The notes under the pieces: generated by a model
Told to the model about the DNA's origin: nothing
Database searches by the model: none
Seen by the model: the letters and a program-made list of their open reading frames with translations, nothing else
Assembly (NCBI RefSeq): GCF_003704095.1
Contig: NW_020847220.1
Span: 1 to 64,000 of the forward strand
Origin: Pocillopora damicornis
Taxonomy: Eukaryota
Direction: 5' to 3'
DNA: 64,000 bases
In this document: positions 52,401 through 55,400 of the stretch, in pieces
Numbering within the stretch: position 1 is the first letter of the stretch
How the letters are laid out: every line of letters starts with the position of its first letter
Program-made: the position numbers and the translations under genes

Positions 52401-55400
52401 CCATATTGCAAAGTGCGACTTGTGAAGTTAAAATAGAAAGTATTCCTTGGGAACGGAGATCAAGAAAGGGGTAAAGATTTTAGATAAGTTTCGTGGAAAA
52501 GAGGCCTGGGTCTAGTCCAGCAAGTGAAGTAGTCATGCATAAGGGCGATTTTGAATTTTCGCGGGACTCATGCTTTGATCTTCACATTCCTCCACGGTGT
52601 AAATTGAGCACTCCCAAAAACCCATTATTTAGGGGTCTATATAAAGTGATCTCACTGATAACGGAAAATTTTCGATACTTTAACAGTACCTAAGGCTTCC
52701 CTGCTTAGGCTCCCGAAGTGACTGGGCCTCACTAGTTCGGTGAGCTGCCTTTCAAGCCAATGGGGTCGGAGAACTAAGAAAACCGAATCTGCTCCAATTA
52801 AGATACCCAATCCTGTGCACTCAAGGTAGTTGGCAGCTTTTCTGCATAGATGATCCCCCTGGATGCCACACTCACTGGCTAGACTCTTAAAAGTAGAATA
52901 ATCAAGATGCTCAATTCCTTTCCTCTTCAGCTCAAGGGCTTTTGAAGCCAAACTTTCTAATCTGTACCAGACGGGACTTTGGTGGCAGTTTGATTCACTT
53001 AGTACCAACAGTAATTCCTCTAACAGCTCGCTTGGTTCTGAAGCAAAGGTGGTCCCAACGAGAATGGATCCCTTTATCTTTGGATTAACTTTCTGGAATG
53101 GCGTTAAGTCGATGTCATTTGCATGTGTAGTACTGACATTTATAGCCAAAAGGATTACATCGGCGGAAGATGCATGTTCTGACAGTAAGTGCAACCAGAA
53201 GTTGAGGTTCTCCTCAGGCAGGTTTCCGTTGCAGGCGTCCCATACGTAGACGTAAATTCCACTGTCAGTCATCGAAGTCATCATAAATACTTCCTGTGTC
53301 AATAAATCTGTGTTGATGGCTGGAACCCCCGTCAATTGAATCCATGATTCATATGGGCCAATGACTTTCTGAAGGACCCCACCAACTTCTCTCATACACT
53401 CAGTGTCTGAACTAATCAGCGACAGTTTAATTCTCTTCGACGAAACGCTTTTTTCTGTTGTGACTTTAAACGGACTCCCAAAGAGATTCTTTCCATTTCT
53501 TGTTATAGAGACCTTGAAAGATCCTTCAGAATAGAAAACCATGGAAGCAATGTACACCTCATCCGCACTAAGTGACTGCTTTATCTTTCCCTTGGAATGA
53601 ACACGTCTTAGGGGGTCTTGACAGTTAATTATCTCGGCTCGAAATTCCTGTGCAAGGAGAGGAGAAAAATGGCAAAGATGAGAATAATGAACAAGCAATT
53701 GTTGGCAGCCTTTTGCATTAACGCATATTACCATGCAAGTACTGCCGTGTGAGCTTTTATATCTTTTGGAAATTTCCACTTCAAACAATCTGCCAACCAC
53801 AGCAAGGTGATTGTCTGCGATTCCAACGTCGCCAATGATTTCCAATTTGTACCCGGCAGGAGAAGATCTGCACTGCGTCTCCTTCAGCAGCTTCGGAATG
53901 TCCATGGCTTGCGCTGAGGCAGTGACACTCAGGAGCTTTTTCCTTGTTTTTTCCCCCTTTGGTAAATCTAGCTGACCCCAGAAATAAACCTGAAAGAAAG
54001 ATTCAACATTGCAAATGATGCAAGCATTTATTAAATTTGATGCAAAGGCCGTGTAAGTAACTTGCCACATTATTGGAGGTTCTGCCGGATATTCTATGAT
54101 CCGTCAACAATTGTAATAGAATACTTGTATTAATAAAGAAAATTTGTACACCAGTTTAATAGCTAGAACATGCAACCGTCAATAAACTTTTTGTCACGTA
54201 ACCTACGCCAGCTAGGTGAAATCTATGCGAACTCGTCCGGGGTCTATCTTTGCCACGAGATGACCATGACGTACACAGAAAAGGCGACTGAAAATACAGG
54301 TTATTCGTAGCCTGTAACAAAGTGGGAAATGTAAAGTTTGGAATAAAAAACAGAGACAAACCTTGCCATTTTCTGTGAGAACAGATGTGCTCGCCCATCC
54401 ACAACATATAGCTTGAATCCTGTCAAACTCTGTTATTGGAACAAACTGAAAAGTCCGGGAGGATTGGAATGTACCACTTCCCAGCTGGCCTGAATTATTC
54501 TCTCCAGACGTGAAGAGAGTTCCTCTGTCGGATAAGGCAGCTAGGTGGTCCGCACCACAAGCGATTTGTACAATTATTTCACAGTTCAATTCCTTATGCC
54601 ACACAACATCCTTGCCTGCCATCGGCGACCAACTGTACACATCTCCAATGGTAGTGCAAAATAGAAATGTATTGAGACTTGCTTCCACTGCCATTATAGT
54701 GTCACCATGAAAAGGGACGGTAGTGAAATCAACTTCCGGTGATCTATCAGTTTCTGACTCTTTCAACTGAGAGAAAAGGGAACGTATGAGGTCTTCAGGA
54801 ACTGTATTTTCTTGAGGTTCAAGAGAAAAATGTTGCAACAACCACCTCCAGACGTCGACATAATACACTTTTCCTTGCCTATCCATGCTGACCAGAACTG
54901 AGCCCACCGCGCGAAGAGTGGTCAAGTCGATCGTGTTGCATTGAATCTGTAGTATGCAATCATGCATGGCCTGGCAATCAAACTTGGAAGAGATTCCTGC
55001 GCAAAATATCAGATTACCGGTGCCATTCAGCGCTACTACCAGCTCGATAAAGGATTTTTCACATGGCACATAACACGTGGTGACATCTCTGATGCTTACC
55101 GCCTCATCAGCGGCAGCAGGGTCAGAGGCGGCTTCATTATTCACATCAAAAGGTATTGGATCTTTCAACTTAGCCCCATATTGGCATTTTCCCCATATCA
55201 TTACATCTCCACCAGTGGTTCGAACCATGGTGTAGTCTTCACTACAGCACAGTTCTTCCGCTCTAACGAGAGAAACCAACAGTTGTCAGTAAATCAATGG
55301 AAATGAGGGTGGATTAGTGCGGAAGAAGATATTTCCTGAGCAACGATAGTTAAAGAAGGGTATTGTAGTATTATCAACTGATTTGACAACGTAAACTGGC

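Follow-up and report, generated by a model that had tools for sequence, protein, structure and literature searches.

A spliced and conserved Roc-COR module with a pseudo-GTPase Roc domain in corals

Proteins of the ROCO family, including LRRK2, count by definition as GTPases. Opinions differ on whether their Roc-COR module works as a Ras-like switch or as a nucleotide-driven dimerisation device (passages of PMC4104024 and PMC11052575). What remains of such a protein when its Roc domain has no nucleotide site? A gene of the coral Pocillopora damicornis raises this question. It lies in a stretch of 64,000 nucleotides (contig NW_020847220.1, positions 1 to 64,000), all of which was analysed and is called the window here. 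A first-pass annotation, made from the letters alone, had proposed that the Roc domain of this gene is a catalytically dead pseudo-GTPase, and that nucleotide sensing may have been handed over to an N-terminal Rab-like domain. The pseudo-GTPase reading of the Roc domain is well supported. A spliced, conserved pseudo-GTPase Roc-COR module is a real feature of corals, and the hand-over is plausible.

The gene is located on the minus strand. It has 13 exons between the start codon at 61914 and the stop codon at 49460, and encodes approximately 1,860 amino acids. Exon 1 (61866-61914) is joined in all four RNA runs to exon 2 (59596-60343), which carries the Rab-like GTPase domain (59826-60329, residues 22-189; Pfam Ras, E 1.8e-22). 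Exon 3 (58962-59167), supported by RNA joints and without a Pfam match, belongs to an unannotated region (residues 190-393). RCC1 repeats (residues 394-973) start in exon 4 (57387-57871), continue through exon 5 (56466-56977) and exon 6 (54362-55262), the latter with an insertion, and end in exon 7 (53732-53989). Exons 4 to 6 are supported by both Pfam and RNA, exon 4 also by the gene model, and exons 7 and 8 by the gene model and RNA. The first half of a filamin repeat (residues 1014-1116) is encoded in exon 7 from about 53851; Pfam recognises Filamin in three of the four orthologs (E 1.5e-5 to 1.3e-4). Exon 8 (52690-53647) contains the second half of this repeat (to about 53459), the whole pseudo-Roc domain (52994-53434, residues 1125-1271) and the N-terminal part of COR-A (52690-52978). 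The end of COR-A and COR-B follow in exon 9 (51576-52223; RNA and structure model), and a predicted helical linker in exon 10 (51031-51188), whose acceptor at 51188 is used in RNA. The C-terminal tail domain (residues 1641-1860) is encoded by exons 11 (50240-50494) and 12 (49957-50097), both seen in RNA, and by exon 13 (49460-49726; gene model and RNA), which ends with the stop codon.

All 12 modelled introns are joined in RNA contigs and have GT-AG ends. The contigs were assembled from four RNA runs, each of a different study, and each contig spans only part of the gene. RefSeq models from three coral genera agree with the gene model. The region 52690-53646 is covered by one ungapped contig in each of three RNA runs, and the P-loop position lies 234-257 bases inside exon 8. 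A single ungapped contig crosses exon 8, which leaves no room for an additional exon at the site of the P-loop. The first-pass annotation had named an unspotted exon with a P-loop as one way in which its reading could fail; the RNA contains none. Both GTPase-like domains are encoded on one spliced gene in four full-length proteins and at locus L002; in one ortholog (P0003, 1,843 aa), they lie on one 5,770-base contig.

The loss of the nucleotide site can be followed motif by motif. SSDTECMR (53390-53413) comes directly after RIKLSLI (53414-53434) and stands where GxxxxGK[ST] would be expected; helix alpha1 is predicted to begin at the fourth residue of this remodelled P-loop position. Alpha1 and a short link to beta3 take up 53333-53389, where switch I and beta2 are deleted according to alignment and models. 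The G3 position reads TGVPAI (53315-53332; WGVPS in most orthologs), with Asp replaced by Gly. Beta5 and the G4 position correspond to VILLAINVS (53132-53158), and the G5 position to VGTTF (53045-53059), where Gly replaces Ser. The structural Roc motifs IYVYVWD (53237-53257), LNFWL (53192-53206) and VILL (in 53132-53158) are kept, as is the start of COR-A, ECGI..AANYL..G (52811-52873). The first-pass annotation had described the missing G1, the missing equivalents of DFxGQ and T[HK]xD, and the persistence of these structural elements, and all of this holds. The loss of G5 and the deletion of switch I with beta2 go beyond that description. Within the modelled protein, [GA]xxxxGK[ST] occurs only once, at residue 29 (nt 60308) in the N-terminal Rab-like domain; scanning all six frames of the window turned up four more, each outside the gene.

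The same losses are seen throughout the family. Motifs were counted in 31 rows, consisting of the window, four long orthologs and 26 fragments, several of them near-copies. The count omits the short fragments P0063, P0070 and P0072, the cluster members P0123 and P0125, and P0102, P0107, P0110, P0114, P0115 and P0130, which start after the P-loop. An ortholog alignment had been suggested as a check on P-loop loss, and in it neither GxxxxGK[ST] nor GK[ST] occurs in any of the 31 rows. The P-loop Lys column is occupied by Met (20 rows), Leu (five), Val (four) and Ile (two), and the Ser/Thr column by Arg in 27 rows and Thr in one. The G3 Asp, in a register anchored at the beta3 Trp and requiring an 8-residue insertion, is Gly in 31/31 rows. 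The G4 Asp is kept in only two, the distant P0052 and P0075, which retain an HxD G4, and the G5 Ser is kept in none of the 31. Among the rows examined, the first 80 residues contain no DxxG except in two, where it lies at the P-loop position. An identical pattern of motif loss is found in 14 rows that are pairwise less than 80% identical, the lowest being 25% identical to the window, and equal loss is seen in the seven loci of the dN/dS set described below. In the window itself, drift has gone slightly further than in most rows: the beta3 Trp is lost too, along with the Gly that opens the P-loop.

The distance from the first G1 position to the beta3 Trp position is 27 residues in 25 of the 31 rows (range 22-39; 27 in the window), and 50-55 residues in four intact Roc domains. 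As read from the alignment, switch I and beta2 are deleted in the pseudo-Roc domain. The sequence that stands in place of the motifs is conserved in its own right: G1 position 5 is acidic in all 31 rows, position 8 is Arg in 27, and a Pro follows the G3 Gly in 30. These conserved new P-loop and switch II sequences suggest a new structural or binding role.

The fold of the domain was examined with predicted structures, using VIA-align for structural scores and Foldseek for fold searches. An alignment of an AlphaFold model to LRRK2 had been proposed as a check, and absence of a predicted Roc fold as a contrary outcome. The exon 8 model aligns with the LRRK2 Roc domain with Z 12.6 and rmsd 3.2 over 145 aligned residues, and ROCO structures match first, occupying all of the top 11 Foldseek places. 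This model was built from 21 family rows only and has a mean pLDDT of 63 (60-87 in the Roc part). Since LRRK2 and other G domains score less than one Z unit apart in this comparison, the Roc label depends on the tandem with COR and on sequence. A second model, covering the Stylophora ortholog from Roc to the end, has LRRK1 as its best Foldseek match (E 8e-16). It aligns with Methanosarcina Roc-COR with Z 21.7 and rmsd 3.4 over 273 residues, and with LRRK2 with Z 20.7 over Roc, COR-A and COR-B. Its pLDDT is mostly at least 90 over residues 11-460 and low in the tail, and four of its 65 alignment rows are intact Roc-COR proteins that may steer the fold. Both models have five strands, no beta2, and an alpha1 that starts from the fourth G1 position. 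In ordinary P-loops, the helix begins near the Gly-Lys. As read from secondary structure only, alpha1 of the coral domain is predicted to extend into the phosphate pocket.

Sequence comparisons also lead to ROCO proteins. Profile-profile alignment with four intact Roc domains gave a local probability of 99.3% (E 3.8e-20); a reversed control reached 0.2%. A PDB search with a four-ortholog profile returned 10 matches, all of them LRRK1 or LRRK2 and each weak (E 0.06-0.12). Among 1.84 billion representatives, 73 matches were found. They are mostly short fragments of the pseudo-Roc family, together with six longer proteins (from E 1.5e-6), four of which have a whole Roc domain with an intact P-loop. 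The top ESM Atlas matches are ROCO clusters (0.94). In exon 8, Pfam does not detect the Roc domain, and its COR-A and COR-B matches (E 0.07 each) are below threshold; the Pfam label 'Roc' falls on the N-terminal Rab-like domain. Standard annotation thus overlooks the module. In a tree, 24 pseudo-Roc rows and the fragment P0130 are split from six canonical rows with support of 100/100. This split joins long branches and includes few canonical sequences, and it therefore names no donor. Support for the 24 rows alone is weak (58/81).

COR lies directly after Roc in the predicted structure and in the sub-threshold Pfam matches, and is approximately 10-17% identical to solved ROCOs. The G1-G5 motifs expected of a ROCO Roc domain are absent. 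Judged by sequence, the module is ROCO-derived, as opposed to an active ROCO GTPase. Pfam finds neither an LRR nor a kinase match in the four long orthologs at E up to 5, and because no LRR precedes Roc and no kinase follows COR, the protein falls outside the LRRK1/LRRK2 subfamily. A predicted small-GTPase fold that is retained while its G motifs are degraded, with the degraded state conserved, makes the Roc domain a candidate class i pseudoGTPase.

Known ROCOs, such as LRRK1, LRRK2, Chlorobaculum tepidum Roco and Methanosarcina barkeri Roco2, share with the coral protein the predicted Roc-COR-A-COR-B tandem of approximately 450 residues. LRRK1 and LRRK2 are the nearest PDB sequences to its beta4-alpha3-beta5 region. 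In contrast to these proteins, the coral module is without G1-G5, switch I and beta2, lacks a detectable LRR or kinase domain, and carries Rab-like, RCC1 and filamin domains in front. Similar Roc-COR regions and a similar tail end are present in LRR-Roc-COR proteins with a C-terminal tail, a group made up of P0117-P0119 and of brown-algal-type ROCO clusters in the ESM Atlas. Unlike the coral Roc domain, P0117-P0119 have intact P-loops, and LRRs are found at the start of P0117 and P0119. A likeness in the lesions themselves is provided by the pG1 domain of p190RhoGAP. As described in part of PMC5593906, its five motifs are degraded, alpha1 covers the phosphate cavity, switch I is deleted, and the domain is classed as non-binding. 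The coral domain resembles this account in its degraded G motifs, its deleted switch I and its predicted extended alpha1. It differs in being Roc-derived and followed by COR, in a larger deletion (about 23-28 residues including beta2, compared with 11 in the pG1 account), and in that non-binding was classed for pG1 but is deduced here.

The module is maintained by selection. The named orthologs are uncharacterised RefSeq proteins, all from stony corals: Stylophora pistillata XP_022789661, whose exon 8 part shares 86% identity with the window, Oculina patagonica XP_078383909, and those of two Montipora species. The pseudo-Roc domain is 88, 65, 58 and 56% identical to four orthologs, which is at least as high as in the RCC1, filamin and COR regions. 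Within exon 8, dN/dS (Nei-Gojobori) is lowest in pseudo-Roc at 0.14; the filamin half has 0.18 and COR-A 0.21. These values are rough, because the dS of window pairs (1.3-2.1) comes close to saturation. They derive from the window and seven loci, some of them near-copies, with 26 of 28 pairs usable; locus L008 (29% match) was dropped because it has no open frame of at least 120 aa. The pseudo-Roc domain is under purifying selection, with a dN/dS of about 0.14. Since Roc-COR has been kept under such selection after loss of the whole nucleotide site, the module would have a GTP-independent job.

The N-terminal Rab-like domain, by its motifs, is the candidate site for nucleotide. G1 (60285-60308), the G2 Thr (in 60219-60230), the DxxG of G3 (60147-60161), the TKxD of G4 (59964-59975) and the TSA of G5 (59880-59888) are kept in all four proteins and in the three loci that hold the exon, and the domain is among the best conserved parts of the protein (62-86% identity). 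It is likely to bind GTP. The switch II Gln in 60147-60161, however, is Lys in the window and Lys, Met or Arg in all seven ortholog and window copies seen. Because this residue is replaced, the domain may hydrolyse slowly or be a GTP-locked binder rather than a cycling switch, so the protein may combine one non-binding and one hydrolysis-poor G domain. The best PDB matches are Ypt6, Rab5 and Ypt7 (about E 5e-13), and Ypt6, Rab5, Ypt7/Rab7, Rab1, Rab21 and Rab35 score within about 6 bits of one another. The domain is itself N-terminal, and none of five coral proteins has a Cys within the last six residues. Without a C-terminal cysteine prenylation motif, it is filed as Rab-like only. A recent duplication of pseudo-Roc as its source was considered and is unsupported, with no BLAST hit below E 0.5 among the matches listed; compared with intact Roc domains, the Rab-like domain was matched by BLAST at the P-loop alone. 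Next to it, residues 190-393 (59825-59596, 59167-58962 and 57871 to about 57700) are 54-83% identical in the three orthologs where this region is complete, have no Pfam match, and are possibly an undescribed domain.

An RCC1-like propeller together with a Rab-type GTPase is also seen in RPGR-RAB8A, but in the coral protein the two are in one chain. RPGR acts as an exchange factor. A tentative idea is that the RCC1 propeller of the coral protein might serve the nearby Rab-like domain as its own exchange factor or as a surface for binding. Among ROCO proteins, the layout with two GTPase domains is not new. According to part of the review PMC4104024, three Trichoplax ROCOs (TRIADDRAFT_62404, 62498 and 57945) have a Ras-like domain N-terminal of ROC, and a division of labour between this domain and the active Roc is proposed. 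Compared by description, these proteins resemble the coral protein in having a second small-GTPase domain before Roc-COR. The relevant part of the review treats both of their domains as GTP-binding or GTPase, however, and reports no dead Roc.

These results are best explained by a nucleotide-free Roc-COR scaffold, to which we give, as a whole mechanism, a probability of about 0.7. Roc-COR would keep its predicted ROCO fold and bind no nucleotide, and would serve as a fixed partner-binding or dimerisation platform inside a large trafficking-type protein. Any GTP input would enter at the Rab-like/RCC1 end, the Rab-like domain being the only predicted GTP site. Both the parallel with p190RhoGAP pG1 and established P-loop chemistry indicate that a Roc domain lacking every one of the five GTP-binding motifs is very probably a non-binding pseudoGTPase. 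If Roc is unable to bind GTP, a nucleotide-driven Roc-COR cycle cannot run. It is an even call whether the module is then held in a single state; the simplest candidate is the nucleotide-free state, a dimer in Chlorobaculum Roco.

Other explanations can be weighed against this scaffold. The hand-over, in its strict form, would have the Rab-like domain contact Roc-COR in cis or across a dimer, its GTP state bringing about the shift in conformation, or between monomer and dimer, for which Roc is responsible in other ROCOs. It fits with the presence of both domains on one spliced gene in four full-length proteins and at locus L002, with the strong conservation of the Rab-like domain (62-86%), and with the Ras-like domains N-terminal of ROC in the three Trichoplax ROCOs, as given in part of PMC4104024. 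However, approximately 930 residues of linker, RCC1 and filamin separate the Rab-like domain from Roc-COR, its catalytic Gln is absent in 4/4 proteins and 3/3 loci, and the order of fusion and loss is unreadable because Roc is dead in every row examined. We regard strict hand-over as rather unlikely. The same low standing applies to its fuller version, in which the switch has moved to the fused Rab-like domain with its own RCC1 exchange factor and opens and closes a nucleotide-free Roc-COR dimer from outside. Alternatively, the dead Roc-COR might act as a decoy or regulator that pairs via COR with active coral ROCO proteins and damps or tunes them. COR is a dimerisation domain (passages of PMC4104024 and PMC11052575), several LRRK clades are described for cnidarians in part of PMC10643122, and inactive enzyme copies serve as decoys in immunity according to part of PMC7159879. 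A COR of only about 10-17% identity to solved ROCOs argues against such pairing, and the steady purifying selection is more in keeping with housekeeping than with an arms race, which makes this role improbable.

Two further possibilities concern the site itself. Conservation of the replacement sequence, with the acidic residue at G1 position 5 (31/31), the Arg at position 8 (27/31) and the Pro after G3 (30/31), could mean that the remodelled site retains some unusual mode of binding, for nucleotide or a different small ligand, without catalysis. Rnd and RGK proteins can bind despite degraded motifs, as stated in part of PMC5593906. In the coral domain, however, the phosphate-, Mg- and base-binding positions are lost together, the phosphate loop contains two acidic residues, and the models have alpha1 reaching into this loop, so that binding of this kind appears quite improbable. 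Finally, failure of Pfam to detect Roc in exon 8, with COR-A and COR-B below threshold, is what would be expected of a pseudogene, of a relic in decay, or of a wrongly modelled gene whose real P-loop sits on a missed exon. Such a reading is hardly tenable against an open frame across 13 exons, 12/12 joints in RNA, ungapped contigs across the site, concordant RefSeq models of three coral genera and a dN/dS of about 0.14.

A nucleotide-free scaffold would extend pseudoGTPases to the Roc clade, where the lesions of p190RhoGAP pG1 would have been repeated independently. The structure and oligomeric state of coral Roc-COR would offer a direct test of a nucleotide-free module without engineered P-loop mutants. 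If the Rab-like domain did take over the switch, the protein would also be a natural model of an LRRK2-type apo state, and in it one GTPase would have taken the place of another in the same chain. A dead Roc is unmentioned in passages of PMC10643122, PMC11378527 and PMC7159879. Neither a dead Roc nor the Rab-like-RCC1-filamin-Roc-COR architecture was found described in a literature search that covered mostly open-access main texts.

Several other features of the gene and its family were observed. COR-B (51576-52223) has three CxxC motifs that are conserved in 5/5 coral proteins, and the last two are likely a zinc site. The tail (49460-50494) is among the best conserved parts (57-91%). Its end matches P0117-P0119 with a profile probability of 92.8% over 52 columns (reversed control, 0.1%), and an ESM Atlas search with the tail gave no usable match. 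Among the fragments, P0063 and P0072 appear to be family copies with systematic changes of Ser, Pro, Thr and Ala to Phe, Leu, Ile and Val, as from C-to-T converted DNA, and are probably library artefacts. P0102, P0107, P0110/P0130, P0114 and P0115 are more diverged Roc- or COR-A-like fragments that start after the P-loop. G4 is absent in all three that span its position, and these fragments may represent a second pseudo-Roc family.

Regarding splicing, the intron at 53648-53731 is short and is spliced out in 4/4 RNA runs; because it is in frame and stop-free, ORF callers read through it (P0030, P0031). The exon 10 acceptor is a tandem NAGNAG at 51185-51188, of which RNA uses 51188, with the second AG at 51185, and the Stylophora cluster contains forms with and without the extra residue at this acceptor (P0001, P0007). 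Short palindromic repeats in introns at 55400-55570 and 58040-58320 are matched by very many RNA contigs and are likely high-copy miniature transposons. Elsewhere in the window, ORFs at 630-1769, 4931-6043, 21431-22552, 27124-27606 and 44625-47117 resemble what we take to be two single-exon GPCRs and MPS1/TTK-like kinase, POLG2-like and PSMD5-like proteins. A plus-strand ATG at 62173, about 260 bases from the start codon of the gene, apparently belongs to a gene arranged head to head with it, which suggests a shared promoter.
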